32,000 nt of DNA from Alkalilimnicola ehrlichii MLHE-1 (GTDB taxonomy: Bacteria; Pseudomonadota; Gammaproteobacteria; Nitrococcales; Halorhodospiraceae), in the NCBI RefSeq assembly GCF_000014785.1, contig NC_008340.1, positions 2,040,001 to 2,072,000 of the forward strand, written 5' to 3'. The notes beneath the pieces were generated by a model that was not told the DNA's origin, made no database searches, and saw only the letters and a list, made by a program, of their open reading frames with translations. Position 1 is the stretch's first letter. Each line of letters opens with the position of its first letter. The translations under genes and the position numbers were made by a program. This document shows, in pieces, positions 1,304 to 15,979 of the stretch.

Positions 1304-4300
1304 CTATCCGCCGCCGGTGCGCTTTTCCTCACGCACTCGCTTAAAAATCTCCTCGGCAAGGTGCTCATGGGCTGCTGAACGAAACTCCTTGTCGGTCATC
1401 ACACGCGAAAATATGTCTTCGTTGTTTTCCATTCGGTCAATGAACAGTTCATCCAGCATTCGCTCCAGAAATGCGGAGAAGTTTGGCAGGTTGTTTGCCC
1501 TTGCCGCTTCAACGATTTTTTCATTTTCCTCGGCGCTCGCGGTGATCTGATCAAAGAACAGTTGGTCGGCTTCGGTAAAGTCTGTGCCAAAACGTTCGTT
1601 TAGCTTTTCGACCAGTGATGATAGCGGCACGGCTTCCTCCTTCACGCCACTAGTGCCGACATCGGTGGGCCCTTTCAGAGGGTAGGCCTCGCCCGTGCCC
1701 AGGTCGATGGAGCCCTCCGTCATTTGTTGCAGGCGGAAATAGCGCAAGGCCACTTCGTCGTCGAGTGCGAAGGCCTGACCATCGCCAGGAGGGGGAAGCT
1801 TGGAAAGTAAGTTGCGGACGAAGGCGTAAAATTTTTCCAGTTCGCTGTCCTGATACGGAATGATCTGAGATAGAAAAGCGTAGAGATTACGGTAGGCGGT
1901 CAACTGGCCGCGAAACTCTTCTTGCTCCGCTTCCTCCCTGTCACTGAAGCGCGCAACCACCGCATCTAACACTGCATTCATTACCCGGTGGTCGGAAGCA
2001 GAGTGATCCCGTTTGCTCCGATACCATACATCCGCGAAAGCATTGACATCATCGGGCGCAAAGATGGCCCAACCCATAAGTTTGTGTTGCAGCTCGGACA
2101 ACTGGTGCGGATCGGCATTCTCGCCGACAGGTGTAGCCTCGTAGTAGGGCTTGAAGGACTGATAGATATCGTCTTCCTCGTTGGCGAAGTCCAGCACGAA
2201 GGTACGGGCCTTGCCCGGTGCCACACGATTGAGGCGAGACAGGGTCTGCACTGCCTGGACACCGGCCAGGCGTTTGACTACATACATGGTCTGCAGCAGC
2301 GGCTGGTCGAAACCGGTCTGGTATTTCTCCGCGACCAGCAGCACACGGTAATCCTCGCGCTCGAAGGTTTCCGGCAGCTCGCTTTCCGCCAGACCGTCAT
2401 TCATCGCGACCTCGGTGTAAGCGGAACCGGGGTCGTCTGGATCTTCAACGCTACCGGAGAAAGCGACCAGCGAGCGTATGCCGCCATAGCCGTTGTCCTT
2501 GATATAGCGGTCAAAGGCCAATTTGTATTTCACCGCAGCCAGCCGCGATCCAGTCACTACCATGGCTTTGGCACGCCCGCCCATTTCGCTCATCACATAC
2601 AACCGGAAGTGCTCGACGATCACCGAGACCACCTGCTCGATATTGACCGGGTGCAATTCCAGGTAGCGGCTCAGGGCCTTGGCGGCTTTCTTGCGCGGTA
2701 CTTCCGGGTCGTTCTCAACCTGCTTGATCAGGCCGAAGAAGCGCTTGTAGGTGGTGTAGTTCTGCAGCACGTCCATGATGAAGCCTTCTTCGATGGCCTG
2801 ACGCATGGAGTATTCGTGAAACGGAGAGCTGCCGGAGGGGCCCGGTTCATCGAAAAGGGCCTTGGTCTTGAATTTCGGCGTGGCGGTAAAGGCAAAGAAA
2901 CTAAGGTTTGGTTGCCGTGCCCGCTTCAGCGAATCGCGAAGAATAGCGGCCTTGGCTTCATCCGACAGCGCATCGTCTTCCTCATCCGACAACTGGGCGG
3001 CTATGGCCGCCTCGATGCCATCCTTGTTCAGCATGCCCCGCAATTCAGAAGCTGTCTCGCCGCTCTGGGAGGAATGCGCCTCGTCCACAATCACAGCAAA
3101 ACGCTTGCCGGCGGTGCTGATTTTCACCCCTGTGCCCTTTTTCTCCAGCGTAGAAAGGGCCTGGGAAATGAAGGGGAATTTCTGCAAGGTGGTGATAATG
3201 ATCGGCGTGCCGCCGGACAGGGCCTGAGCCAATTGCTGGGTGTTCTCGTCGATCTTCTCCACCACCCCGGTCTTGTGCTCGAACTGGTAGATGGTGTTCT
3301 GCAACTGCTGGTCCAGCACGCGCCGGTCAGTGACCACCACCACCGAGTGGAACACCTTCTGATCCTCGGCATCGTGCAGGCTGGCCAGCCGGTGCGCCAG
3401 CCAGGCGATGGAATTGGACTTGCCGGAACCGGCCGAGTGCTGGACCAGATAATTGTGCCCCGAGCCATTGGCCCGTGCATGGACCACCAGCCTGCGCACC
3501 GCGTCGAGCTGGTGATAGCGGGGGAAGATCATGGTTTCCTTGCGGATGGTGCGCACGCCCTTGTCGGTCTTGACCTGCCGCTCCTTCACCTCCAGGTGCA
3601 TGAAGCGTTGCAGGATGTCCATCAGGCTGTCCTTCTCCAGCACCTCATCCCACAGGTAGTGGGTCTTCCAGTTGTTCTCCACTGGTGGATTGCCTGCGCC
3701 ATGATCATGCCCGCGGTTGAAGGGCAGAAAGACGGTATCCTTGCCCTTCAGGCGCGTGGTCATCCATGCCTCGTCCGGGTCCACGGCAAAATGCACCAAG
3801 GCGCGCTTTTTGAACGCAAACAACAGGTCGCGTTCATCGCGGTCCTGCTTGTATTGCTTGACCGCATCTGCCGCCCGCTGGCCGGTGAGCGAGTTTTTCA
3901 ATTCTGCGGTGACCACCGGCAGGCCGTTCAAGCTCAGAGTGACATCGATAATGCAGCGGCGGTTTTTGGTTGATTTTGGACCATCGGCCTTCTTCATCAC
4001 CGAAGTAAAAGCCACCTGCCGGGTGACCGTTAGCCGGTTCAGTGCGTAGGCGGCCGCCGCCTCCGGGTTCATGCCGGAATTGGGCCGGAAATGCGCCAGC
4101 CGGAAGGTCTTGCCGTAACATTTGAAGCCGTAGCGCAGCACATGCAGGGTGCCCTTGATCTCCAACTCCTTGGCCAGGCTGTGCAGCACCGTGGCGCGAG
4201 TCTTTTCGCCCAGCAAGGCTTCCAGTTGGCCCCACTTGGCCGCTTGGCTGTCCTGCAAAAAACCGGTGACATCCTCTGGGAATATCGCCAACGCCTCGTC

Positions 4301-4393
4301 GTAGGCTGAGGCATTGCGTTTCTCATAGCCGCCCGCACTGGTCAGGCTGGCTTCTATGGCGGTTTCAAAAGCGAGTTCGGAGTGGCCAGCCAT
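1304..4393 (-). CDS. hsdR: Type I restriction enzyme R subunit (helicase/endonuclease)
   Basis: 1029 aa. Walker A (SAGSGKSNS), DEAH box (VIVDEAHSSQSG) and SF2 helicase layout. Last gene of an hsdM-hsdS-orf-hsdR operon. Confidence 0.9.
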   Translation of the reverse strand: MAGHSELAFETAIEASLTSAGGYEKRNASAYDEALAIFPEDVTGFLQDSQAAKWGQLEALLGEKTRATVLHSLAKELEIKGTLHVLRYGFKCYGKTFRLAHFRPNSGMNPEAAAAYALNRLTVTRQVAFTSVMKKADGPKSTKNRRCIIDVTLSLNGLPVVTAELKNSLTGQRAADAVKQYKQDRDERDLLFAFKKRALVHFAVDPDEAWMTTRLKGKDTVFLPFNRGHDHGAGNPPVENNWKTHYLWDEVLEKDSLMDILQRFMHLEVKERQVKTDKGVRTIRKETMIFPRYHQLDAVRRLVVHARANGSGHNYLVQHSAGSGKSNSIAWLAHRLASLHDAEDQKVFHSVVVVTDRRVLDQQLQNTIYQFEHKTGVVEKIDENTQQLAQALSGGTPIIITTLQKFPFISQALSTLEKKGTGVKISTAGKRFAVIVDEAHSSQSGETASELRGMLNKDGIEAAIAAQLSDEEDDALSDEAKAAILRDSLKRARQPNLSFFAFTATPKFKTKALFDEPGPSGSSPFHEYSMRQAIEEGFIMDVLQNYTTYKRFFGLIKQVENDPEVPRKKAAKALSRYLELHPVNIEQVVSVIVEHFRLYVMSEMGGRAKAMVVTGSRLAAVKYKLAFDRYIKDNGYGGIRSLVAFSGSVEDPDDPGSAYTEVAMNDGLAESELPETFEREDYRVLLVAEKYQTGFDQPLLQTMYVVKRLAGVQAVQTLSRLNRVAPGKARTFVLDFANEEDDIYQSFKPYYEATPVGENADPHQLSELQHKLMGWAIFAPDDVNAFADVWYRSKRDHSASDHRVMNAVLDAVVARFSDREEAEQEEFRGQLTAYRNLYAFLSQIIPYQDSELEKFYAFVRNLLSKLPPPGDGQAFALDDEVALRYFRLQQMTEGSIDLGTGEAYPLKGPTDVGTSGVKEEAVPLSSLVEKLNERFGTDFTEADQLFFDQITASAEENEKIVEAARANNLPNFSAFLERMLDELFIDRMENNEDIFSRVMTDKEFRSAAHEHLAEEIFKRVREEKRTGGG

Positions 4394-4396
4394 GGA

Positions 4397-5008
4397 TCAA
4401 ATCTCCTGTATCGAGGTGTTCTGCAACTCGGCCAGCGCCTGGCCGTGCACCTCGTCAAAATGGTAATAGCGTATGGATGGATCAGCGCGGAGTTGCCGAT
4501 TGGGTTCCAGATAGGCGTCTGGGTTGTCATTCTCGGCAAAGACGAATTTGCGAAGATGAATTCGGCGCTTGTCACCGGTGTAATGCTCGATGGTGCGCTT
4601 GAGGCTGTGGACCCAACAGGCACCCGCCCTGAGCTGAGGGACAATCTTTTCAGCAGTCAAACTCTTGGATTTGAACTCGATACAGTCCGCGTAAAACCTT
4701 TGGCCGTTCACATAGAAAATAACGAAGTCGCAGCGCTTTGACCAAGGCTTAGCTGTATCGTCTAGAAAGTGGAAAAGAGGCGGTTTACTCTTTTTCCGCT
4801 GCAACTCAACCTGATCATGGTCCAACTTGAAAGCCAATCCCGGCCCCGGCAAAAGAAGCTGTATTTTCCTTGTTTTCGCGCGGGTCCCTGTTGGAGGAAA
4901 ATACTTTTCTTTCAGGATGACTTCACCTCCCACGCCATCATGCATCACATATCGACTATTTACATAGGCCTTCAGGTGCTCGAAATAGGTGGAGGCTGCC
5001 AACGTCAT
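4397..5008 (-). CDS. Hypothetical protein with a PD-(D/E)xK-like motif, embedded in the type I R-M operon
   Basis: 203 aa. Its start overlaps the hsdS stop (ATGA at 5005-5008) and its stop is 3 nt from the hsdR start. ...KRCD94FVIFYVNGQRFYADCIE111FK113SKS... fits D-x(n)-ExK on consecutive beta-strand-like segments (codons about 4670-4729). No family recognised. Confidence 0.55.
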   Translation of the reverse strand: MTLAASTYFEHLKAYVNSRYVMHDGVGGEVILKEKYFPPTGTRAKTRKIQLLLPGPGLAFKLDHDQVELQRKKSKPPLFHFLDDTAKPWSKRCDFVIFYVNGQRFYADCIEFKSKSLTAEKIVPQLRAGACWVHSLKRTIEHYTGDKRRIHLRKFVFAENDNPDAYLEPNRQLRADPSIRYYHFDEVHGQALAELQNTSIQEI

Positions 5009-6264
5009 TGCAGACCTCCGATTTGGCCAGTGACGGCAGCGGTAATTAGTGCAGAGCGATATTCTTCTAGCTTCTGGACACTACGCTTTACTTCATCTGC
5101 AGCGAAGCGATTCTCTCGATCTACACGTGAACAATAGTCGGCAATCTCAGTTTGCTCATCTAGAAAGGGAATTGGTAACACAAACGCACCAAGCGCTTCT
5201 CGATTTACTTTAGGCATCGCAACGCGAAGTGACTCAAGCTCGGCATAAGCCGTAAACGCATCAGTTAGAAGAAAATAAAATAAGTACCGACGTTCAAAAT
5301 ACTTCCCGGGGTCAATAGCGTACATATCTGCACTGCAAAGACACACTGAATCAAATAACGCAACCTTTCTGAGTGCAGGGCGAATCTTTGAGTATAGAAC
5401 AGAGCCCTCAGAGCAGAAGTATTTCCCGCTAATTGCTCCCTGTTCCTCGGCACTAGGGACATCGTATAGTCGTCCAGTACCGCTTTCTATATAGTCGGGA
5501 GCAATTAAAGGCATATCTGTATACTCAGGCTCGCGAGGATCGACTTGCCCACTTTGTACTTGGCATCTCCATTTGAATGGAACCAGATCCCAATGCGCAG
5601 GAATATCACCCAGCCAGTCGATGCCGGAGGGTTTCATGGGGGCTTCGGGGTTAAGGCCCTTGGTGACGGCGCGGGTGATCAGGGCCTGGCGCTTTTCCGC
5701 CAGCCGGTCCAACAGGGCGCGCTTTTTCTCGATCAGGCCATCGATGCGGGCGGTCTTCTCATCCAGAAACTGCGCGATGCGGCGCTGGGTTTCGAGGGGT
5801 GGGAGCGGCATTTCGATAGTGACCAGCTCACTAGCGTTAATCGCCGGATAGCTGACCCCGACCGAGCGCGAAACAACCTCCGATACAAACGGCTCAGATT
5901 TCGCGGCCCAACCGAGGTATCCACTATCGACTTCTTCCCTGTCTGGTCGAACAACACAAAAACCTGTCGAAGCAATCAGGTCTGGCGAAGCTTCGTCAAC
6001 CTTGGCAATGGCCCTGAGGTAAGTCCGAACTGTAGAAATCAATATGTCGCCGCTTCGCACTTTACGACGAGCACGAGAGGGAGCCTTCCCGAAAGTAATA
6101 CGCTCTACCTGCTCAACTCCACGAGATAGGGAAACACCTGAGATCTCAACGTAGTCGATCTCGGCCTCTTCATCAGTGCTTTCTGGTAAGACCTCATCAT
6201 TATAGGTAGCTAGGTATTTGAGGCGCTTGCTTGACCATGTCGCTGGAAGTGTTACGTCAATCAT
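5005..6264 (-). CDS. hsdS: Type I R-M specificity subunit
   Basis: 419 aa. Two target-recognition-domain-like halves are separated by a conserved coiled-coil spacer (PPLETQRRIAQFLDEKTARIDGLIEKKRALLDRLAEKRQALITRAVTKGL). The C-terminal repeat of the same type is KLEEYRSALITAAVTGQI. Overlaps hsdM by 4 nt. Confidence 0.9.
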   Translation of the reverse strand: MIDVTLPATWSSKRLKYLATYNDEVLPESTDEEAEIDYVEISGVSLSRGVEQVERITFGKAPSRARRKVRSGDILISTVRTYLRAIAKVDEASPDLIASTGFCVVRPDREEVDSGYLGWAAKSEPFVSEVVSRSVGVSYPAINASELVTIEMPLPPLETQRRIAQFLDEKTARIDGLIEKKRALLDRLAEKRQALITRAVTKGLNPEAPMKPSGIDWLGDIPAHWDLVPFKWRCQVQSGQVDPREPEYTDMPLIAPDYIESGTGRLYDVPSAEEQGAISGKYFCSEGSVLYSKIRPALRKVALFDSVCLCSADMYAIDPGKYFERRYLFYFLLTDAFTAYAELESLRVAMPKVNREALGAFVLPIPFLDEQTEIADYCSRVDRENRFAADEVKRSVQKLEEYRSALITAAVTGQIGGLQ

Positions 6265-8438
6265 CCCACCAATCCCCTTAAAAGCCCGGCAATTTCCCCT
6301 TCCAGTTCGGTAATCTCCTGCTCGATCTCGTCCAGCGGACGCGGTGGCTTGTAGACGTAGAAATGCCGGTTGATCGGGATTTCATAACCCACCTTGGTCT
6401 TGCTGTAGTCCACCCAGGCATCATCCACATGGGGCAGCACCTCGCGGGCCATGTAGGCGTCGATCTCGGCCCGGAAGGCGGTCACCAGCTTGTCATTGGG
6501 TTTGTCCGGGCCGAACTGCATTGGCAGGGGCAGTTGGGTGCCCTCGGGCAAGGGGATGTTCTCGGTGTCGCGCAGTTCGCTGTCAGGCTCCGGTCTGCCC
6601 TTGCTGTCGCGGCAAATTTCGGCATCGGGGTCGCGCTCGCCCAGAGCGTTGAAGATGGCCTTTTTGATCGGTACCGGGAGTTTGAGGCTAGCCACCTTGG
6701 CAGCGGCGTTCAGATCCGCTTCGAAAACGGCGCGGTCGGTGTACTGCCCCTTGGGTGCTAGGCTCGCCAACAGAGCGCGAATCGCCTCCTGCTGCTTTTG
6801 CCCTTCCGCGATCTCCTTGGCAGCCGCAGCCTCATTCTTGCGTTTTTTCGAGGTGGCCAGGTTGGCAAAGGCGGTCTGCTCATCCAGCCGGGCAATGCGC
6901 TCCGGCGAAGCTTCGAAGTTCATGCGCAGGGGGCGCTCCACCGTCACCTTGAGAAAGCCGAACTCGCGGTTCTCGAAAATGCGGGAGACCACACGGGTTT
7001 CGGTGTCGCCGTTGATTCTTACCTCGGCGGTTTCACCGTCCCGGTTGTTACCGTAGAGTCGGGTCAGATCGCGGATCTGGTCTTCGGTGACCTCGTTACG
7101 CTTGTTGTTGAGGCTTTTCTTCATGCGCTGGAAAAAGCGTGTGCCGTCGATTAGTTGCACCTTGCCGCGCCGCTCCGGGGCCTTGCGGTTGGTCACCAGC
7201 CAGACATAGGTGAAAATACCGGTGTTGTAGAAAAGCTGGTCGGGCAGCGCGACGATGGCATCGAGCCAGTCGTTTTCGATAATCCAGCGGCGGATATTCG
7301 ACGGCCCGGAACCGGCATCACCGGAAAATAGCGGCGAGCCATTGAAGACGATGGCGATCTTGGAACCGACGGAGTCGTCATCCCCCTCTTTGTAGGGGTG
7401 CATCTTGGCGATCATGTGCTGCAGGAACAGCAGGGAGCCGTCATTGATGGCGGGCAGGCCGGCGCCGAATCGTCCGGCAAAGCCCATCTCCTTGTGTTCT
7501 TTCTCGACGACGGTTTTCTGGTCTTTCCACTCCACACCAAAGGGCGGATTAGCCAGCAGGTAGTGAAACTGCTTGCCCTCGAAGCCGTCGCGGGTCTTGC
7601 CGTCGCCCAGGGTATCGCCCAGCACGATGCTGCTGGTGTCTTCATCCTTGATCAGCATGTCCGAACAGCAGATGGCCCAGGACTCGTCGTTGTACTCCTG
7701 ACCGAACAGCGCCAAGTTAGCCTGACTGTTCTGGTCGAGGATGAATTTCTCCGATTCCGACAGCATGCCGCCCGTACCGCAGGCCGGGTCGTAAATAGTG
7801 CGGTAGATGCCCGGCGTGTAAACATCCTGTTCGCCGGTGTAGACCAGATTGGCCATCAGGCGGATGACTTCGCGCGGGGTGAAGTGGTCCCCGGCCTCTT
7901 CGTTGGCCTGCTCATTGAAGCGCATCACCAGATGCTCGAACAGGTAGCCCATTTGCAGGTTGTCGATGCGGTCCGGGTGCAGGTCCACTTCTGACATCGC
8001 CTTGACGATGGTAAACAGCCGGTTGCTGGCGTCGAGTTTTTCGATCTGGTCAGTGAATTTAAAACGCTCGAAGATGGCCCGAGCCGTAGGCGAGAAACCG
8101 TTGATATAGGCGACAAGGTTAGGCGCAATGTTCTCCGAATCCCCCAACAATTTCTCGAAGATGAACGGACTGGTGTTGTAGAGAGGGTGGGTTCGGTCAG
8201 GATCGGCCGCCTTGCCCAACAGCTTCTCCATGGCATTTTCCGGCATACCTTGAGCGGACAGCTTTTCGTATTGCTTCAGCACCGCTTCTTTGGTGGGCTC
8301 CAGCACACAATCCAGTCGCCGCAGCACGACCATAGGCAGCATGACCAAGCGGTACTGAGGGGGGCGGTAAGGGCCGCGAAGGCGGTTGGCGATTTCCCAG
8401 ATGTGGCTTTTGAGCTGGTCGTGCAACTGCAAGTTCAT
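6261..8438 (-). CDS. hsdM: Type I R-M N6-adenine DNA methyltransferase subunit (long form, 725 aa)
   Basis: HsdM N-terminal region, AdoMet motif (DPACGTGGML) and catalytic NPPFG (LLANPPFGVEW). A long C-terminal extension is present. AAGGA lies upstream of the ATG. Confidence 0.9.
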   Translation of the reverse strand: MNLQLHDQLKSHIWEIANRLRGPYRPPQYRLVMLPMVVLRRLDCVLEPTKEAVLKQYEKLSAQGMPENAMEKLLGKAADPDRTHPLYNTSPFIFEKLLGDSENIAPNLVAYINGFSPTARAIFERFKFTDQIEKLDASNRLFTIVKAMSEVDLHPDRIDNLQMGYLFEHLVMRFNEQANEEAGDHFTPREVIRLMANLVYTGEQDVYTPGIYRTIYDPACGTGGMLSESEKFILDQNSQANLALFGQEYNDESWAICCSDMLIKDEDTSSIVLGDTLGDGKTRDGFEGKQFHYLLANPPFGVEWKDQKTVVEKEHKEMGFAGRFGAGLPAINDGSLLFLQHMIAKMHPYKEGDDDSVGSKIAIVFNGSPLFSGDAGSGPSNIRRWIIENDWLDAIVALPDQLFYNTGIFTYVWLVTNRKAPERRGKVQLIDGTRFFQRMKKSLNNKRNEVTEDQIRDLTRLYGNNRDGETAEVRINGDTETRVVSRIFENREFGFLKVTVERPLRMNFEASPERIARLDEQTAFANLATSKKRKNEAAAAKEIAEGQKQQEAIRALLASLAPKGQYTDRAVFEADLNAAAKVASLKLPVPIKKAIFNALGERDPDAEICRDSKGRPEPDSELRDTENIPLPEGTQLPLPMQFGPDKPNDKLVTAFRAEIDAYMAREVLPHVDDAWVDYSKTKVGYEIPINRHFYVYKPPRPLDEIEQEITELEGEIAGLLRGLVG

Positions 8439-8513
8439 TTAGTTGATTATCCTTTTGATATTAGTGCGTGTTTCTGTAGATAATGTTCTCAGGTGAAGCG
8501 GTATTGTGAGTGC

Positions 8514-8603
8514 GTATAACGCAAAGGTAACCGGCGCCGGAGCGCCAGCGGGGGGAACCAAAAGCGGAACGCTTTTGGCGTCCGGTTGACCGCTTGGTTA
8601 GAG
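8514..8603 (-). other. Integron attC site (90 bp) closing the DUF867 cassette
   Basis: Plus strand: GTATAAC-gcaaaGGTAACCGGCGCC...GGCGtCCGGTTgACCgcttg-GTTAGAG. T and G are unpaired on the arm next to GTTAGAG. A perfect 9-bp inner hairpin (CCAAAAGCG-gaa-CGCTTTTGG) is present. The ORF stop codon (8598-8600) lies inside the R'' box. Confidence 0.85.
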
Positions 8604-9212
8604 CAGGCCTGCACGAATCAGCCCCTGACGAACGGCATCGACAAATTTATAGAACACGTCAGTCTGGCGTGCTCTTCCAGCTTTATTGAGAGACTCAAAG
8701 AGAGTGCTTCTCAAGCCGCGGGAGAGCTCTAATTGAACACCAGCTCCGCTCGTTCCGCGATTACAGATATTCGCTCGTGATGTCCCTTGAAGATTCGGGT
8801 TTTCATGCTTGCGCACGGTAAAACCGGCCTCTGCAAGTGCTTCGCTTATTTGAGAGCGCAGCAGCGCATCGGCACCGCCAGCAAATACCGTTTCCCCTGG
8901 GCTGTTTTCACCATGTATTGCTACAGCAGTGCGAGACCGCGCGACTACTTCGACACAACGAGGTTCATCGAAATTCGTACTGGTTATATGCAAGTCCCGG
9001 TTCTTGGCTACCTTAGTACCCTCAAAAATTGCGAAACTAAACTGCTCGCCTGCAATAGCAAAGGCCAACTCTGATGTGCCTGGCTCAATTGCACCACCAT
9101 GCGGGGCAATCACAGCTACCGCTGCTTCGTCTCGCACCGCCACCTGAACGCGAAAATCGCGCCCTTCAGTTTGCTCAGCTTTAAGTGCTTTAAAATTTGA
9201 GTATCTGTCCAT
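8598..9212 (-). CDS. Poly-gamma-glutamate hydrolase family (DUF867 / PghP-like) protein
   Basis: About 204 aa. APHGGAIEPGTSE and ...AVAIHGE... match the remembered HGG-IE-GT and downstream His zinc-ligand pattern of the family. The ATG at 9212 is preferred over the TTG at 9215. Confidence 0.65.
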   Translation of the reverse strand: MDRYSNFKALKAEQTEGRDFRVQVAVRDEAAVAVIAPHGGAIEPGTSELAFAIAGEQFSFAIFEGTKVAKNRDLHITSTNFDEPRCVEVVARSRTAVAIHGENSPGETVFAGGADALLRSQISEALAEAGFTVRKHENPNLQGTSRANICNRGTSGAGVQLELSRGLRSTLFESLNKAGRARQTDVFYKFVDAVRQGLIRAGLL

Positions 9213-9219
9213 CAATTCG

Positions 9220-9288
9220 CTCTAACGCTCAACTAAGCCGCTGGGCGGAGCGTAGCGTAGCCCAGTCGGCTTGAGTGTTATGTTAGCG
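9220..9288 (-). other. Integron attC site (69 bp) closing the membrane-protein cassette
   Basis: Plus strand: CTCTAAC-GCTCAActaAGCCGcTGGG-cggagcgtagcgtag-CCCAgtCGGCTTGAGt-gttat-GTTAGCG. The minus-strand R'' CGCTAAC is the exact complement of GTTAGCG at the cassette start (10209-10203). A tandem partial box GTTAT/GTTAGCG leaves the exact R'' register ambiguous. Confidence 0.75.
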
Positions 9289-10188
9289 ATTCGACATAAC
9301 ACGATAGAACTCTCTCACTGCACTTGCGAACGCGGAGCGTTCCCTAAGCAGTCGCACATACGTCGGCAGATTAAATCCGATAACGGGAGAGAGCAGATTG
9401 CCACGAATGCTGCCGGCCAGCATGGATATTGGCCCGCTCAACTTCTCCGCACAGTCAATAAATTGTTGGCATTCCTGTACGTTCACTTGATTATGGAACT
9501 CTTGGATGTAATTGGGATTATTCACATCGACTATTGGTACATGAATCCACATCTTTCTCCCGATCTCCTCAAGAGCCTGCACTGCCTCATCAAAGGCATC
9601 CGGCATTCCCCAGCCCGAACATAGTATTGTGTAGTTCCTTCCCTTTATTCGATGAACTTGTACCGTGGCCTGCGACAGTTGCTCTCTCGCTGATAGGAAT
9701 TCTCTAGTCTGGCTCAGGGCCCAGTCCACCTTAAATTTTGCCTCACGAGCGTTACTCCCTCTTTGGACCTCATTCACCGCTTCAACGAGGGACTCTACGA
9801 AGAGCTGCGCATCAGTTACAAGTTGGTTGGTTGTTCCAAAAAAATGCTCGATTTCGCCCGCTGTCTGGGTTCTAAGCTGCGCCTGTTGCTGCTGCTTCCA
9901 GCTCACGGTTGCCGTATGAAATGCCACCACAAAGCCACCAAGAGTTACCGCTGCGGTGGCAAGTCCTACTTTGTAAGCCTCCGGCTGTCCGTTGAACCAC
10001 AATACCAACTCGCCAGGGGAAAATGGCTCTACACCGAGCACAGTCTCCGCCCCTACGTATAGTGATATCGCCAGCGCTAGTGCACCCAATGCAGTGCCGA
10101 AAAGAAAGTGCACCAACATCCCAATCGAAATGAACGCGTAGAACGCTGGAACGGCCACTTGAGGTGGAATGCGCTGGAATATCTTCAT
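9283..10188 (-). CDS. Hypothetical membrane protein (2-3 N-terminal TM helices plus a helical soluble domain)
   Basis: The ORF track gives 9283-10266. I prefer the ATG at 10188 (MKIFQRIPPQ...), which is preceded by GGGAG. The hydrophobic stretches are AVPAFYAFISIGMLVHFLFGTALGALALAISLYVGA and VGLATAAVTLGGFVVAFHTATV. No family recognised. Confidence 0.55.
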   Translation of the reverse strand: MKIFQRIPPQVAVPAFYAFISIGMLVHFLFGTALGALALAISLYVGAETVLGVEPFSPGELVLWFNGQPEAYKVGLATAAVTLGGFVVAFHTATVSWKQQQQAQLRTQTAGEIEHFFGTTNQLVTDAQLFVESLVEAVNEVQRGSNAREAKFKVDWALSQTREFLSAREQLSQATVQVHRIKGRNYTILCSGWGMPDAFDEAVQALEEIGRKMWIHVPIVDVNNPNYIQEFHNQVNVQECQQFIDCAEKLSGPISMLAGSIRGNLLSPVIGFNLPTYVRLLRERSAFASAVREFYRVMSNR

Positions 10189-10202
10189 ACGTCTCCCAGA
10201 CT

Positions 10203-10274
10203 CGCTAACGCCGCGCTCTGCGGCAAATTTGGAGCGCAGCGGAGAATTTGTCCGACAGCAGCGCATTGTTAGGG
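10203..10274 (-). other. Integron attC site (72 bp) closing the CHAT-like cassette
   Basis: Plus strand: CGCTAAC-gccGCGCTCTGCGGCAAATT-tggagcgcagcggag-AATTTGtCCGaCAGcAGCGCatt-GTTAGGG. It forms a long imperfect stem with unpaired bases on the arm next to GTTAGGG. The minus-strand R'' CCCTAAC is the exact complement of GTTAGGG at the cassette start (11148-11142). Confidence 0.85.
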
Positions 10275-10277
10275 ATT

Positions 10278-11126
10278 TTACGTGGCAACAATATCATCCT
10301 TAGATAAAGGGAAGCGCGCATCATTTTCTGGAAAATCAGCAATGAAGAAGAACCTTTTTCTGAGTTTATCAAAGTGCTGATCTTCAGATGCAAGACCTTT
10401 CTTTACTTGCTGTCTGGCCCATGCCACACCACGTCTCTTTACGTCGGGGTTTTTCATCGCCTCAGAAACAAGGCGTTCTACCCTTTCTTTCTTCCCTTTC
10501 CCGACACAGTGACTTTTATAGTAGGCTCGGTAAGCCCTTGAAAATAGTCCAGCAGCGCTTAAAAAATGATAGGTTCGATCTTGATGCTCTGCCCCTTCAT
10601 TAAGGATACCTATGGCTTTATCACCATCGAGGTCGAAAAAGAAGGACTCATAAAACCGACCGAAATTATCCTGAATATGCCCAGCAGTTACTTCTACCTC
10701 CGGACCAATTATTGCCCAGAAAGGAGCCGCATCTAGCCTTGTAGATGCTTTTATTAAATGGGCACCATTGCAGGCAGCAATTACAATCATCAGATTTAGC
10801 TTAGTCGCTCGGTTAATCTCAATAAGTATCTCTCTGATTTCATCCCATTCAACCAGTTCTCCGCTAGCGGTTCCCAAGCCGTCTTCACACCCATGACACT
10901 CAAAGTGGATCATTGGATATATTCCGCTCAAAGCCTCATTTCGTATTTTTTCTAATACGTCAAACAGCTCGGACTTAGTTATTGGCTCAGCGAATTCGAC
11001 GACAAGGTCTTGCTGTACCTGCTTAGCCTTGTCCAGCTGATTGTCGAAGAGATTTTTCCCGGTTCTAAGCTCACCTGATGGTAAAGATTCTATAACCCAC
11101 AGCTTATTGAAAATATTTCCGGACAT
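10278..11126 (-). CDS. Putative clan-CD (caspase/CHAT-like) cysteine peptidase, single-gene cassette
   Basis: 282 aa. A hydrophobic strand followed by His-Gly (PMIHFEC-H78-G) and, 41 residues later, a hydrophobic strand followed by Cys (LMIVIAA-C119-NGA). This is the order and context of the caspase-hemoglobinase-fold catalytic dyad. H78 codon 10893-10895; C119 codon 10770-10772. Motif-level call only. Confidence 0.5.
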   Translation of the reverse strand: MSGNIFNKLWVIESLPSGELRTGKNLFDNQLDKAKQVQQDLVVEFAEPITKSELFDVLEKIRNEALSGIYPMIHFECHGCEDGLGTASGELVEWDEIREILIEINRATKLNLMIVIAACNGAHLIKASTRLDAAPFWAIIGPEVEVTAGHIQDNFGRFYESFFFDLDGDKAIGILNEGAEHQDRTYHFLSAAGLFSRAYRAYYKSHCVGKGKKERVERLVSEAMKNPDVKRRGVAWARQQVKKGLASEDQHFDKLRKRFFFIADFPENDARFPLSKDDIVAT

Positions 11127-11141
11127 GACGATTCCATTTAT

Positions 11142-11217
11142 CCCTAACGCGCAGCGTAACCGGTCGGATTTGGAGCGTCAGCGGAAAAGCCGATCCGTGT
11201 TGACGCTGTTGTTGTGC
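11142..11217 (-). other. Integron attC site (76 bp) closing the DUF262-HEPN cassette
   Basis: Plus strand: CCCTAAC-gcgCAGCGTAACCGGTCGG-atttggagcgtcagcggaaaag-CCGAtCCGtGTTgACGCTGtt-GTTGTGC. The 16-nt arm pairs perfectly once T, T and G on the other arm are flipped out. The minus-strand R'' GCACAAC is the exact complement of GTTGTGC at the cassette start (13051-13045). Confidence 0.85.
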
Positions 11218-11260
11218 TAAGCTGACGGATCGAATTCGTCTCGCCGCCACTCCTTATCCA

Positions 11261-11893
11261 TTACTCTGCACAATTCATAATATTATTTTGGAAACAATCC
11301 GATAAAACCAGAAGCATCCTTTGCGTAAACGTGACGTGCTCCCTGATATCTATCGTCGACAAATCCGGGTCATCGCCATGCGCAATACTATGGCGCCACC
11401 TCACAAGCTCGTTGTCTATTTTAAGGCGCCACCGCAAGAATGGAGAGCAATCGAACCCCATGACTTCGAAGTTGTCTTTTAACTTTCTGAAATCTAGATT
11501 TGATCTAGAAGAAACCACTTCCTTATCAAAATTCAAAAAGTCCCCTCTTGTCACTTCCTGAAATCGCAAGATAAACTCTACTGCTGCAAGCTGAGAATGA
11601 TTTCTATCTCTGAGCCTTTGAAAATCAGACTGGAGCAACCCAATCAGCATTGGCCAAGAGACATCTGAAACCTTCTTTCTAGCCTCCCTCAAAAAATCTA
11701 TGTAAAGAGATACGCAATCGTTATAAAACCCTTCCCAGTGAGAATAGGATAAAACGATAACTGCCTTCGACTGGACCCCAAATTGCGCAATAGAGCCTAG
11801 CTCATTCATTCGGACTTTTATCTCTGACAGTTCCTTGGCTCGGCGCAAGCGGATCGAATCCAAGTCTGAGAGAAATTGAAAAACATCGCTCAT
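11261..11893 (-). CDS. HEPN-domain protein (MAE_28990/MAE_18760-like), predicted RNase effector
   Basis: About 210 aa. Rx4H motif W-R-H-S-I-A-H-G (codons 11378-11395) near the C-terminus, plus the upstream YSHWEGF element typical of this HEPN family. The ATG at 11893 overlaps the DUF262 TGA (ATGA). The ORF track starts at 11908. Confidence 0.7.
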   Translation of the reverse strand: MSDVFQFLSDLDSIRLRRAKELSEIKVRMNELGSIAQFGVQSKAVIVLSYSHWEGFYNDCVSLYIDFLREARKKVSDVSWPMLIGLLQSDFQRLRDRNHSQLAAVEFILRFQEVTRGDFLNFDKEVVSSRSNLDFRKLKDNFEVMGFDCSPFLRWRLKIDNELVRWRHSIAHGDDPDLSTIDIREHVTFTQRMLLVLSDCFQNNIMNCAE

Positions 11894-12999
11894 TGTGGAG
11901 AAAACCAATTCTCACCAAATGGTACGGTTCTTTGGATCCGAGTAGTCCCTCGCAAGCCTGACGCACTCAACTCGGCGACATCTCTTTCTCGCCAGAACCG
12001 ATCGACGCGCTCACGCAAAAAACCATCCGGGTCTTCCAAGTCCTGAATTTTTTCTTTGTTTCTGGCGACCCCTACCAATATCGCTTCCAGTGCACGCAGA
12101 GAAAATCTTTTGGCTATTCCTTGATAAGCCTCGTCATGAGGAATCAAGGCATCGCCCCCGAATAAGCTATGCAAGCTATTGACGGCCCATTCCACCGTAT
12201 GGATCACATCATTCGGATCTTGATCCACGATAATTCGCGCAATACTTCGGTCGAGGAACTCCTGAACATCAGCATCTGAGCCAAAATCTTCGACTGTATG
12301 AACAATAGCACGAACCGCATATTCAACATCTTTTTGTTTTAAATTCTGCTCTTCCGTAATTTTAAAAATATTTATAAATTCTTCGCTTCTTGCCAGATTC
12401 CTTATTCGAGCGGTAGCATCTGCATTTCCAAGCACCATTGAACAAGTGCGGACTTCCTGCTCATTAGCGTACTCGCCACCCCGATTCAATCGCTGAAACA
12501 AATCAAATTTCGTTTTTGCGTCACTTGGGTGTTTAAGTATCTGGAAATCCAAGCGTGACCGACGAAAGAAAAGCTGAAGAGATTTTTCAAGAACTTGAGC
12601 ACCTCCATCTCCTCCTTCTGTTGGCCACACGACACCATCTAAGGACGGAAGATAGGTTGCAGTTGTCAGAGTAGAAGGCGGCATCTTCTCTGCAGGATTA
12701 TCTGGTTCGCGCAAAACGCCCATGAACTCGAGCACTGTGGAGATACGTTGTAACCCGTCTATCAGCTCCCATGTTCCATCTGGCTTTTCATATGCGAAAG
12801 CCGGGGGCACAGGGATTCCAATCAAAATCGATTCGATAAAAGCCGTCTTCTTTTCAGGAGACCAACGAAATAATCTCTGAAAATCAGGGATAATATCTAG
12901 CTCCTCCGCCGCATACATGGAAGCGATCTCCCCAATGGAGATTTGCAAACTATCGGTAACAACTGATCGCTTTGCGGTTTCTAGTTCATTTCTTAACAT
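11890..12999 (-). CDS. DUF262 (ParB/Srx-fold, GmrSD-N-like) protein lacking a DUF1524/HNH nuclease domain
   Basis: DFQRLFRW, IDGLQR and FQRLNRGG motifs match the DUF262 signature (QR..W, DGQQR, LN.GG). The ATG at 12999 is preceded by GAGGG at 7-nt spacing. The ORF could extend to 13017. Confidence 0.75.
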   Translation of the reverse strand: MLRNELETAKRSVVTDSLQISIGEIASMYAAEELDIIPDFQRLFRWSPEKKTAFIESILIGIPVPPAFAYEKPDGTWELIDGLQRISTVLEFMGVLREPDNPAEKMPPSTLTTATYLPSLDGVVWPTEGGDGGAQVLEKSLQLFFRRSRLDFQILKHPSDAKTKFDLFQRLNRGGEYANEQEVRTCSMVLGNADATARIRNLARSEEFINIFKITEEQNLKQKDVEYAVRAIVHTVEDFGSDADVQEFLDRSIARIIVDQDPNDVIHTVEWAVNSLHSLFGGDALIPHDEAYQGIAKRFSLRALEAILVGVARNKEKIQDLEDPDGFLRERVDRFWRERDVAELSASGLRGTTRIQRTVPFGENWFSPQ

Positions 13000-13044
13000 T
13001 AAGCAGCCCTCAAGCATGGAGAATCATAAGCAGAAATTTCATCT

Positions 13045-13063
13045 GCACAACGCCTAGTTAACC
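13045..13063 (-). other. attI-like simple site at the head of the cassette array
   Basis: Minus strand: GGTTAAC-taggc-G|TTGTGC. The GTTGTGC core is cognate to the R'' of the first cassette's attC. A related 19-bp site (plus strand GTTCAAC-gcctt-GTTGCAC) lies at 13140-13158. Overlaps the last codons of the IS91 tnpA ORF. Confidence 0.5.
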
Positions 13064-14343
13064 GGCCCGCATCGAGGCAAATAAAAATGCCGATCGCCCT
13101 CATTCACCTCGGACCTCCTCGAAGGCACTAGCGGGTCCGGTTCAACGCCTTGTTGCACACTGCCCGAAGCCTTCGGAGGCGACCCACTTCTTATTAGGGA
13201 ATTTTGAATCCGGTGGCGACTCGGGGGAAGCGTGAATCCCCGGATCAGCTCGGCACCGCAAGCGGGACAGCACAGGGCGTCGCTATGGCCAAGCATCTCC
13301 AGGTACGCCTGCCAGGTCTGCTTCTTCGGCTCCACTTCGGGCATAGGCGCCCCCATTTGTTCTCGGCAAGCCATTCGCTTGGCACGGCAGGTGTGGGCAT
13401 ACAGACCAACGTGGCGGACGGTGTGCTGACCCGGCTCCGGGACATGCCACAGGATCTGTTCCATGAATCGCTCCACCGCCACACGCCGCAGTTTCCGTCG
13501 ACCATCCCGGTGGTCATGGTAACGGAATTGAACCTGGCCTTCCCCCAACGACTTGATCCGGGTGTTTGTGATGGGTCCGCCGCGCACGTAGCGAGACAGG
13601 TACGCAGCGACTCCTCGTCCATGTGTATAGCGGCCCTGCAAACGGACATTCCATTCTTTCTTCGCAGTGGCCTTGAGCCAGTAATCCACGGTCGGATGAT
13701 CGCCACGGGGCGCTTTCAGTCGGCCAGTATCCAGATCATGGCGCAGACGGGAGAGTAGTTTGCCCCGGAACACGCGCTTCACCACGGCCGCAGGCAGCAG
13801 AAAGTCACCCTTCACCGCTCGCCACTGTCCACCCGTCGTCAATCCACCCCCACTGATCAAGCAGTGAACATGGGGGTGGGCGTTAAGGGTTCGACCCCAC
13901 GTGTGCAGGGCCATCACAATGCCGGGGACCGCCCCTAGGTGACGATCTTGCGCAAGCAGTTGGATGAGGGTGTCCCGACTGGCATCGAATAGCGCGGCCA
14001 CGAAGGACCGGCGGTTGTACCGCCACAGGGGGATCAATTCATGGGGCACGGTAAAGATAGCGTGGAAATGATCGCAAGGCAGCAGGCGGCCTCGTTCACG
14101 CTCCATCCACTGTGCCTTGGCACGCTCCGCACATTGCGGGCAGCTACGATGCCGGCACGAGTGGTACTGCACGCGGCGGTGGTGGCCATGGGGACAACAC
14201 TGCTCGTGGCCCCCCAGCGCTTCCGTCCGGCAATTCATAATCGATTCTGCCGCTTTGAGCTGCGGGAGCGGAAAACAATGATGTTTACGAAGCCCATCAA
14301 AATGCTCCAGAAATACGTCCTGAATGGTCGGCTTCCTTGCCAT
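13054..14343 (-). CDS. tnpA: IS91-family (HUH, Y2) rolling-circle transposase; element ends not defined
   Basis: 429 aa. N-terminal Cys/His zinc-binding region (CCPHGHHRRVQYHSCRHRSCPQC), HUH motif (HPHVHCLISGGG), YxxxY pair (YLSRY) and C-terminal CPACG. The last approximately 55 aa look non-conserved and run over the attI-like sites. Confidence 0.85.
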   Translation of the reverse strand: MARKPTIQDVFLEHFDGLRKHHCFPLPQLKAAESIMNCRTEALGGHEQCCPHGHHRRVQYHSCRHRSCPQCAERAKAQWMERERGRLLPCDHFHAIFTVPHELIPLWRYNRRSFVAALFDASRDTLIQLLAQDRHLGAVPGIVMALHTWGRTLNAHPHVHCLISGGGLTTGGQWRAVKGDFLLPAAVVKRVFRGKLLSRLRHDLDTGRLKAPRGDHPTVDYWLKATAKKEWNVRLQGRYTHGRGVAAYLSRYVRGGPITNTRIKSLGEGQVQFRYHDHRDGRRKLRRVAVERFMEQILWHVPEPGQHTVRHVGLYAHTCRAKRMACREQMGAPMPEVEPKKQTWQAYLEMLGHSDALCCPACGAELIRGFTLPPSRHRIQNSLIRSGSPPKASGSVQQGVEPDPLVPSRRSEVNEGDRHFYLPRCGPVN

Positions 14344-14590
14344 TGATTGAGCCTCCTGTACGGCGCTCCATGCCGTATATTACAGACATTGCAACGCGGC
14401 ATGTCTTCGCCAACTAACTGAAAAATCGCAACATCTGCCGCGAAGCGGCTTTGTGCAACAGTTGATTCTACTGCGTCTGTAGAGGCGGTGATATGCAGAC
14501 GCCGCATGTCACACCCGGGATACTTGATATCGAACCAGTCGGTGGCGCATGCTTATCGTGCATAGTCATGGACTGACGGAGTAAGGAATC

Positions 14591-15979
14591 ATGGTTGATC
14601 CAAGCCGCAAAGATGCCCGTGCCCGGTTCTGGGATCGTTACATCCAGGCTCTCCGAAAGCAAGGCGTGAAGCCACCCTTCGACCGATGGCACGTACGTCG
14701 GGCGGAGGAGTTCATCAAGGCGCACCCTGATCAAAGGCTTCGCGAGTTGGGCCCTGATGGCGTGCAAAGCTACCTGCGACGGAAGGGACACGCCGGTAAT
14801 CTCAAGGCCTGGCAGTTCCAGCAAGTGGTTCGTGCTATACAGACGCTGTATAGCACGGCTAACATAGCATGGGCTGCGAGGTTCGACTGGCAGTATTGGA
14901 TGGATGCCGCCCGAACGCTCGAGCCTGAACACGTTTCTACGGCCCGGGACACCCCAGCGCCAACTCCGGTACGGCTTGCCGAACGTGTTGCTGACACTCG
15001 TCTGGCACACGTGGTACACGCGCACCCCGCGCTTTTTGAGGCTTTTTCTGAAACAGTCACCAGCAGAGGCTTGGCGATCAGCACCGAGAAAACCTACCTG
15101 GCGTGGACCTGCCGGTTCATTGTGTTTCTGCAGTCGAAGCCTGTGGAAAGCGCGGACGAGGCGGATGTTCAACAATTTCTCAGTCAGTTGGTCACACAGC
15201 GCAATGTAGCCGCCAGCACCCAGAGCCAGGCTCTGAACGCTTTGGTCTTCTTCTTCCGGTACGTTCTGCAGCGACCGCTTGGCGAACTCCAGGCTATTGA
15301 GAGGTCAAAACGGCCCAGGCGCCTTCCTGTGGTTCTCTCTCGCAATGAGGTCAAGGCGCTGTTGAGTGAAATGCACGGTGTTCACCATTTGCTGGCCTCA
15401 TTGCTTTATGGTTCCGGCATGCGGGTCATGGAAGCACTACGATTGCGCGTCAAAGATATAGATTTCGAGCGGCGGGCAATCACGGTGAGATCCGGCAAAG
15501 GCGATAAGGATCGCGTGGTACCCCTTCCCGAATCCACGATAGCGCCGCTCCAGAACCACTTGCGGCAGGTGAAGGCCATTCACGAGGGAGACCTGGCCGA
15601 TGGGTACGGTGAAGCCTCCCTCCCCCATGCCCTGGCCCGGAAGTACCGCAATGCCGGGAAGGAATGGCATTGGCAGTATGTGTTTCCCAGTGCCCGGGTA
15701 GCGGTCGATCCCCGATCAGGGGCGATCCGTCGACATCATCTTCATGAAACCGCTGTCCAGCGTGCGGTAAAACGGGCGGTGAGAGCCTCCAGAATACCGA
15801 AACAGGCCAGTTGCCACACCTTGCGGCACAGTTTTGCCACGCACCTGCTGGAGCGCGGCCAGGATATCCGAACCGTGCAAGAGCTCCTGGGCCACGCGGA
15901 TGTATCGACGACCATGATCTACACGCATGTAATGAGCAAAGGTGGCGTCCCTGCGGCGAGCCCGTTGGACGGGCTTTAG
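14591..15979 (+). CDS. intI: Integron integrase (IntI-type tyrosine recombinase) with an approximately 130-aa N-terminal extension
   Basis: 462 aa. It aligns by eye with IntI1 across the N-terminal SAM-like domain, box I ([27 protein letters not shown]), the IntI-specific insertion ([21 protein letters not shown]...RRHHLHE), [28 protein letters not shown] and the tail GG..ASPLDGL. AAGGA lies 4 nt upstream of the ATG. Confidence 0.85.

Follow-up and report, generated by a model that had tools for sequence, protein, structure and literature searches.

The hsdS-hsdR junction of an Alkalilimnicola type I operon

The window analyzed here is a stretch of 32,000 nucleotides (nt) from Alkalilimnicola ehrlichii MLHE-1 (contig NC_008340.1, positions 2,040,001 to 2,072,000 of the forward strand), and its subject is an open reading frame (ORF) of 203 amino acids (aa) on the minus strand at 4397..5008, which we call X. 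An earlier note, made from the letters of this DNA, had described X as a nuclease-like gene wedged between hsdS and hsdR of a type I restriction-modification (R-M) system. We found the ORF to be present, and domain assignments with Pfam and PADLOC identified the flanking genes as hsdS and hsdR, within one co-oriented cluster that reads hsdM-hsdS-X-hsdR on the minus strand. The X protein is identical to ABI57134.1 / WP_011629528.1, which is annotated as 'hypothetical protein', and no mention of these accessions was found in the literature searched. The locus contains the following features:

6261..8438, minus strand: hsdM, type I methyltransferase subunit, 725 aa (Pfam N6_Mtase 4.8e-54 and HsdM_N 7e-22; PADLOC MTase_I 2e-269)
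5005..6264, minus strand: hsdS, specificity subunit, 419 aa, GC 51.1% (Pfam Methylase_S 4.6e-19; PADLOC Specificity_I 1.5e-90)
5015..5019, minus strand: GGAGG, a Shine-Dalgarno-like motif for X within the 3' end of hsdS (minus strand CGGAGGTCTGCAATGA), 7-11 nt upstream of the X ATG
5005..5008, minus strand: ATGA, in which the hsdS stop overlaps the X start, a translational coupling read from the sequence (plus strand tcat)
4397..5008, minus strand: X, a 203-aa PD-(D/E)xK-like protein (translation; PADLOC PD-T4-4_B 7e-8 and PDC-M47B 3e-5)
4727..4777, minus strand: X codons L78-D94 (LFHFLDDTAKPWSKRCD), the best-conserved stretch of the family, with low model confidence (conservation and a predicted local distance difference test score, pLDDT, of 59-70)
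4670..4732, minus strand: X codons C93-K113, the predicted beta-hairpin that carries D94 ... E111-x-K113 (AlphaFold2 model and conservation)
4403-4407, minus strand: AGGAG upstream of the hsdR ATG, within the final codons of X (sequence)
4391..4407, minus strand: junction of X and hsdR, with the X stop TGA (4399-4397), a 3-nt spacer and the hsdR ATG (4393-4391), reading TGA TCC ATG
1304..4393, minus strand: hsdR, restriction and translocase subunit, 1029 aa, with its own nuclease motif intact (Pfam HSDR_N, SWI2_SNF2, ResIII, T1R_D3-like)

The coupling that had been proposed on both sides of X was confirmed in the sequence, and it is conserved well beyond the window. The ATGA overlap with hsdS is retained in 57 of 73 homologous loci, X and hsdR are mostly 2-9 nt apart (by exactly 3 nt in 30 loci), and G-rich motifs resembling GGAGG stand at the equivalent position upstream of X in the majority. 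A scan for promoters and terminators within the operon gave no signal above shuffled background. The C-terminus of X (..Q-E-I-stop, CAG GAG ATT TGA, 4397-4407) is conserved and also serves as the Shine-Dalgarno region of hsdR; its conservation may therefore be due in part to this overlap, and not to protein function.

X is a real gene and not a chance ORF, because it has 625 homologues (E <= 1e-3), most of them about 200 aa in length, because both the ATGA overlap and the gap to hsdR are conserved, and because its ratio of nonsynonymous to synonymous substitution rates (dN/dS) is 0.03-0.16, with a median of 0.09, in pairs with unsaturated synonymous sites. The family is small and compact, its homologues forming 80 clusters at the 50% identity level among 1.84 billion representatives.

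A predicted, divergent nuclease family related to PD-T4-4_B

The motif from which a PD-(D/E)xK nuclease had been predicted, C93-D94-F-V-I-F ... C-I-E111-F-K113, is present in X and nearly invariant in its family. Of 210 distinct sequences from the family, 209 have D94, 208 have E111 (with an aspartate in one more) and 206 have K113, and two further residues are similarly constrained (Q125 in 207 and D63 in 208).

When compared with the hidden Markov models (HMMs) of PADLOC, X matched PD-T4-4_B (PDLC04037) at E 7e-8, with residues 7-161 aligned to profile positions 4-149 of 190, and it also matched PDLC04035 (1.8e-5) and PDC-M47B (3e-5). The relationship recurs across the family: of 25 divergent members, 19 match PD-T4-4_B (the best at 1e-12) and 18 match PDC-M47B. 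The scores of X itself against PD-T4-4_B are low, which points to a sister family whose likeness is at superfamily level only. Searches of Pfam, NCBIfam, PHROGs and PDB sequences, with the single sequence and with a profile, gave no meaningful match, and we regard the matches to LapB and ROCK1 at E 0.03-1 as chance. Weak Pfam matches of single family members all fall on PD-(D/E)xK families (HSDR_N_2, PDDEXK_9 and DUF2726). The claim that X has no known family thus stands for Pfam, NCBIfam and the PDB and gives way for PADLOC, where X is a distant relative of PD-T4-4_B / PDC-M47B, with members of its family reaching 1e-12. The family to which X belongs is unnamed in Pfam, NCBIfam and PADLOC v2.

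An AlphaFold2 model of X, built from an alignment of 25 sequences, reached a pLDDT of 88.7 and a predicted template-modelling score (pTM) of 0.87. Its N-terminal part consists of a helix and four strands (residues 5-61), and its core of a hairpin (95-101/104-113), a long helix (119-144) and a strand (150-158). As in the classical PD-(D/E)xK arrangement, the hairpin begins next to D94 and ends with E111-x-K113, and the predicted order of elements (a strand-strand-helix-strand core) fits this fold. The structural search that the earlier note had called for was less clear than the order of elements. Foldseek against the PDB and BFVD returned no match below E 0.005, with template-modelling (TM) scores <= 0.28 throughout, and the best of these weak matches (Nt.BspD6I, BamHI, SwaI, HincII, FokI, the hantavirus (bunyavirus) endonuclease and herpesvirus UL24/ORF20) are almost all PD-(D/E)xK enzymes.

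The most conserved stretch of the family, LFHFLDD..KPWSKRCD (residues 78-94), contains near-invariant residues and is modelled at a pLDDT of 59-70. Between allelic variants of X, described below, segment 63-93 is likewise the best conserved, at 0.60-0.68 identity versus 0.34-0.47 elsewhere. This combination suggests that residues 78-94 may form a site that becomes ordered upon binding of a partner or substrate.

Because the motif, the AlphaFold2 model, the weak Foldseek and Pfam matches and the homology to PD-T4-4_B agree, we predict with good, if not complete, confidence that X is a divergent PD-(D/E)xK-type nuclease and that its family is a sister of PD-T4-4_B.

X is tied to one clade of restriction systems and is dispensable to it

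In a scan of one genome per species, relatives of X were found in 117 of 185,579 species, in phyla that include Pseudomonadota, Acidobacteriota, Verrucomicrobiota, Chloroflexota, Cyanobacteriota, Desulfobacterota, Nitrospirota and Planctomycetota. In 80 genome loci selected by X, the order is hsdM-hsdS-X-hsdR on one strand wherever flanks exist, and the HsdM and HsdR proteins belong to the same clade as those of the window (50-96% identity). Distant members of the family (P0151, P0167 and P0158; 30-34% identity) likewise lie between hsdS and hsdR. Among about 90 loci examined, none had X outside this slot. A search of 72,556 plasmids and 50,697 phage genomes gave no X, and in IMG/VR it occurred in only 4 of 2.9 million contigs.

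We found no ATP-binding cassette (ABC) ATPase in the operon of the window or in the hsdS-hsdR slot of any X homologue locus examined. The only relative with an ATPase is the most marginal one, P0200 (E about 1e-3 to X and 1e-12 to PD-T4-4_B), which directly follows a 464-aa AAA_15/AAA_21 ATPase, as in the PD-T4-4 arrangement. From these sequence relationships, X appears to be of the same stock as PD-T4-4_B / PDC-M47B and to have lost the usual ATPase partner. Another marginal match, P0197, was set aside as an uncertain relative; its truncated upstream ORF is unlike the HsdS of the window and has no PADLOC match.

Two further observations concern the form of the gene. X appears truncated or interrupted in a few loci (L064 8001-8363, L065 2221-2529, L050 5758-6231 and L028 8095-8610), which show a 120-aa or 102-aa frame or a partial tblastn match, and these copies may be decaying genes or assembly errors. 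In the most divergent R-M-embedded sub-family, of the P0167 type, a 78-aa ORF with a weak match to DUF202 (membrane) lies between hsdS and X (L172 712-948, L173 2983-3219 and L174 3842-4078), and this is the only separation of hsdS from X that we saw.

The 80 loci selected by X, taken by themselves, would suggest that X is a fixed fourth subunit. We therefore also considered loci chosen by HsdR, using its N-terminus as the query of a scan of metagenomes, from which 80 loci with 45-76% identity were obtained, together with a neighbour-joining tree of HsdR N-termini (330 residues). All X-bearing loci fall within one clade of this tree. Of the eight HsdR-selected loci in that clade, five have no X in the sequence upstream of hsdR: hsdS directly abuts hsdR in L097, a Fic/DOC gene occupies the slot in L084 and an unrelated 303-aa gene in L095, the slot is empty in L115 (where a RhuM gene lies between hsdM and hsdS), and L119 has an IrrE/M78 and DUF4411 pair in the slot, with X possibly past the contig end. 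X is present in L083 and L109, and L085 has too little upstream sequence to judge. At their HsdR N-termini, the five loci without X share 66-88% identity with the nearest X-bearing locus, more than many X-bearing loci share with one another. These X-less loci rule out a fixed fourth subunit: X is dispensable to its R-M clade and is not a core subunit of the restriction enzyme.

Nor is X a copy of, or a substitute for, the nuclease domain of HsdR. The D..ExK..Q..QY nuclease motif of HsdR is invariant in relatives with and without X, as are the helicase motifs, and a profile comparison of X with the HsdR N-terminus (hhalign) gave a probability of 0.4% and hence no relation to the HsdR nuclease domain. 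Because the motif is kept regardless of X and the profiles are unrelated, X neither replaces nor duplicates this nuclease.

The hsdS-hsdR junction hosts add-on genes

The slot that X occupies is an insertion site more generally. Of 54 loci in the wider HsdR family for which an hsdS could be identified upstream, 40 show a gap of more than 30 nt between that gene and hsdR, and in 37 the gap exceeds 300 nt. The cargo in this slot is highly diverse and includes, for example, Fic, TIR, RhuM and GxxExxY-like proteins. The hsdS-hsdR junction is therefore an embedding hotspot for add-on genes. This diversity is in line with the published embedding of defence genes in type I R-M, BREX and DISARM systems, where PrrC is found almost exclusively within type I R-M (bioRxiv 10.1101/2024.01.29.577857). 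Because the slot hosts add-ons and X is dispensable in its own HsdR clade, we prefer the view of X as an add-on, as the earlier note had framed it by analogy with PrrC, to that of a core subunit.

Where X-bearing loci carry additional cargo, it mostly lies after X and ahead of hsdR. A two-gene cassette of an IrrE/M78 peptidase with a helix-turn-helix domain and a PIN-like DUF4411 protein recurs at this position (L004, L005, L006 and L026, each at about 8700-10400, and L078). A CAP12/Pycsar-type TIR protein (PF10137, 4.6e-33 in L055) is also found there repeatedly, in loci with near and with distant X sub-families (L055 8661-9386, L058 8594-9394, L038 8930-9664 and L172 1930-2652); it may be a recurrent partner of X or a mere frequent co-passenger. 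Other genes between X and hsdR are a DUF3800 gene in L077 and genes for uncharacterised 281-283-aa proteins in L018, L047 and L048. The nearest plasmid-borne relative, pYP1 of Ketogulonicigenium vulgare (L081), has an HsdR that is 52% identical to that of the window, and its slot (5048-6992) contains an AAA_21/AAA_15 ABC-type ATPase and a gene annotated 'retron system putative HNH endonuclease'.

An old association with exchangeable alleles

Pairwise identity of X tracks pairwise identity of the HsdR N-terminus (Pearson r 0.76), such that X proteins of about 40% identity pair with HsdR proteins of about 55%. Because X keeps to a single HsdR/HsdM clade and has diversified alongside it, the sequences indicate that the association is old and not a recent insertion into the operon of the window.

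There are exceptions to this correlation, namely 17 pairs in which HsdR is more than 85% identical and X less than 55% (in L062 and L031, for instance, 97% and 50%). DNA comparison located the breakpoints of these exchanges at the borders of the gene. Between L052 and L016, hsdS is 85.5% identical until 19 nt before the start of X, X itself is unalignable, and identity returns at 84.7% from the first hsdR codons. In L052/L016, L062/L031 and L058/L018 (about 8001-8600), X alleles of about 47-50% identity have been swapped between backbones that are 83-93% identical at the DNA level. Because near-identical backbones carry X proteins of about 50% identity, with breakpoints at the gene borders, X appears to exist as at least two old, interchangeable alleles. 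Variant 1 is found in 47 loci, including the window, and variant 2 in 12.

Base composition had earlier been taken as a sign that X was acquired separately. X is indeed more AT-rich than hsdR (GC 50.5% versus 57.5%), but this comparison was incomplete, since hsdS is equally low at 51.1%, hsdM has 58.5%, and the whole island lies below the 66-72% of the genome. With a neighbour of the same composition and a tie to one HsdR/HsdM clade, separate acquisition of X is not borne out, and we ruled out low GC as a sign of it.

A predicted effector nuclease that may depend on the restriction complex

PrrC is a latent nuclease that is held silent by the restriction complex, and its prr locus has the order hsdM-hsdS-prrC-hsdR in EcoprrI. 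By analogy, we propose that X could serve as an accessory effector, a nuclease dependent on the R-M complex, PrrC-like in its logic and with a predicted role in defence, a proposal for which we see about as much chance of being right as wrong. The dependence is suggested because the relatives of X depend on an ABC ATPase partner. X is co-encoded and translationally coupled with HsdM, HsdS and HsdR on one message. In the steps that we propose to follow, X would bind the Hsd complex, which would stand in for the lost ABC ATPase as a gate and keep the nuclease silent; engagement or blockage of the restriction complex in the course of infection would release or activate X; and X would then cleave nucleic acid, either as a back-up or as an abortive defence layer. 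Its target is as likely to be RNA as DNA, because the relatives PD-T4-4 and WonAB (described below) gave no DNA degradation.

A more specific form of this proposal is that the type I complex acts as the sensor and gatekeeper that replaces the ABC ATPase. X would stay bound and silent as long as HsdMSR is functional. Phage anti-restriction proteins (the DNA mimics Ocr and ArdA, for example, or Stp-like peptides) would jam the complex and so unleash X, probably against tRNA or rRNA. We put this version forward tentatively, as rather unlikely in all its parts. If true, the 'guard of the restriction enzyme' strategy of PrrC would have arisen twice in evolution, independently, with X as the second case, and the exchangeable alleles of X would mirror an arms race with phage inhibitors.

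Several points weigh against the proposal that X is an R-M-dependent effector. X itself belongs to no PADLOC, Pfam or NCBIfam family, and the assignment of its fold leans mainly on the motif and a distant HMM match. Model confidence is low for its best-conserved stretch (78-93), so that the active-site geometry is putative. The sample of in-clade loci selected by HsdR is small (two with X, four clearly without and one doubtful). Finally, an auxiliary role in restriction would also account for a gene that is found strictly with one R-M clade.

Such an auxiliary role is the alternative that survives best. As a subunit of the restriction enzyme, X would be a second DNA nuclease or nickase on the translocating HsdR, aiding the formation or processing of double-strand breaks. 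In favour of a subunit, X is confined to a single HsdM/HsdR clade, invariably follows hsdS directly, is tightly coupled to both flanking genes and has diversified in step with them, and three family members match HSDR_N_2 weakly. Set against this are the D..ExK..QY motif of HsdR, which is kept with or without X, the close HsdR relatives (66-88% identical) that lack X and look intact, and the swapping of X variants of only 50% identity between near-identical backbones. In addition, the profile comparison showed no relation of X to the HsdR nuclease domain, and the relatives of X did not degrade DNA. Taken together, we consider an auxiliary subunit unlikely.

X might alternatively be a defence gene that works on its own, such as a type IV or Mrr-like nuclease, and that borrows the slot and its promoter without any dependence on Hsd proteins. 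The many unrelated and apparently self-sufficient genes in the slot (Fic, TIR, RhuM and GxxExxY-like) are consistent with this, as is the cassette-like exchange of X alleles, whose breakpoints fall at the borders of the gene. A self-sufficient gene is nevertheless at odds with the finding that X stays within the slot in about 90 loci and is missing from plasmids and phage genomes, and with the requirement of its relatives for a partner ATPase, which together make this explanation improbable.

Least probable of all, X could be a regulator or safety device of the R-M system, acting on HsdR output through coupled translation, in restriction alleviation or as an addiction toxin after loss of methylation, since type I R-M systems need HsdR activity to be delayed or limited and the hsdR ribosome-binding site lies within the final X codons at strongly conserved spacing, but the near-invariant catalytic-type residues and the strong purifying selection across X exceed the needs of a spacer or coupler, and loci with extra genes between X and hsdR lose the coupling yet retain X.

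The surrounding island

The operon is part of a low-GC island (window 1304-15979), with 43-58% GC versus 66-72% in lysS, prfB, cysS and gltX. On one side, the edge of the island is marked by an IS91-family transposase (13054-14343, minus strand) and a tyrosine integrase (14591-15979, plus strand) next to mfd. No tRNA genes were found within the window.

Other genes of the island lie upstream of the operon on the minus strand. Directly upstream of hsdM is a gene for a poly-gamma-glutamate hydrolase family protein (8598-9215; PF05908, 4.9e-68). At 11261-13017, an overlapping pair encodes a DUF262/GmrSD_N protein (375 aa; PADLOC NsnA 1.5e-47 and PD-T4-2_A 1.5e-29), followed by a RiboL-PSP HEPN protein (215 aa), and thus has the 'DUF262, HEPN' composition of the PD-T4-2 defence system. 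Two adjacent ORFs of 282 aa and 327 aa (9283-11126) lie between this HEPN gene and the operon. Apart from a weak match of the 282-aa ORF to Peptidase_C13 (caspase-like; E 0.018), this pair has no family match, and it could be a further defence pair in the island.

Significance

New defence functions are known to come from genes embedded in restriction operons, few of which have been tied mechanistically to the host system, PrrC being the classic case. Embedding as such is already known; it is the obligate tie of X to one R-M clade, the apparent loss of the ATPase and the exchangeable alleles that make X a candidate for an R-M-gated effector. The family of X is rare (117 of 185,579 species representatives), spread over many phyla and strongly constrained, and it offers a clean comparison, in which the same nuclease stock works with an ABC ATPase elsewhere and has only a restriction enzyme as a possible partner here. 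Should the dependence on this enzyme be real, effector nucleases would be able to trade their controlling NTPase for a whole R-M machine, and X would provide a second tractable model of 'guarded' restriction, with natural controls at hand in the X-less relatives and the two exchangeable X alleles. If X is instead self-sufficient, it would add one more embedded defence candidate.

Comparison with known systems

The closest known relatives of X are the nuclease components of PD-T4-4 and PDC-M47. PD-T4-4 is a two-gene anti-T4 system ('ATPase, nuclease') of E. coli ECOR58 (Vassallo et al. 2022, PMC9519451); its B protein is handled in the literature as a PD-(D/E)xK nuclease (PMC12137116) and its A protein as an OLD-type ABC ATPase. 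X resembles the B components in that it matches their HMMs over most of its length, has about 200 aa and shares the D...ExK core, and PDC-M47 was itself defined from genes embedded in R-M, BREX and DISARM systems. Unlike these systems, X has no adjacent OLD-type ABC ATPase, its neighbours being hsdM, hsdS and hsdR. Because this defining ATPase is missing, X should not be classed as PD-T4-4. Purified EcPD-T4-4 cut none of 11 DNA substrates in vitro (bioRxiv 10.1101/2025.07.10.664194).

A second comparison, by description and not by sequence, is with WonAB of the WASA-1 prophage of Vibrio cholerae, the organisation of which is similar to that of PD-T4-4 according to its authors (PMC12137116). 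WonB is a small toxic effector of the PD-(D/E)xK-variant type that needs a partner NTPase: it is toxic only with a functional WonA ATPase, by means of its catalytic lysine, and it halts translation while chromosomal DNA stays intact, for which the authors suggest an rRNA or tRNA target (PMC12137116). WonAB thus offers a model of abortive infection through translation shut-off that leaves DNA intact. In contrast to X, WonB is smaller (16 kDa) and is paired with an ABC ATPase on a prophage, not with an R-M system.

The pair in pYP1 of Ketogulonicigenium vulgare occupies the identical hsdS-hsdR slot as a dyad of ATPase and nuclease, which shows that such dyads do land there. It differs from X in being a two-gene cassette with an HNH nuclease fold and in having retained its ATPase.

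PrrC and X sit at the same place in the operon, after hsdS and before hsdR, and both are almost confined to type I R-M systems. The two differ in build: PrrC is a fusion of an ABC-ATPase domain and an anticodon-nuclease domain, whereas X has neither, is half the size and carries a restriction-endonuclease-type motif. In agreement with this, X has no ATPase motif and no Pfam match, and no PrrC model was among its PADLOC matches. X is unrelated to PrrC by sequence, and the resemblance between the two is one of position and probably of logic.

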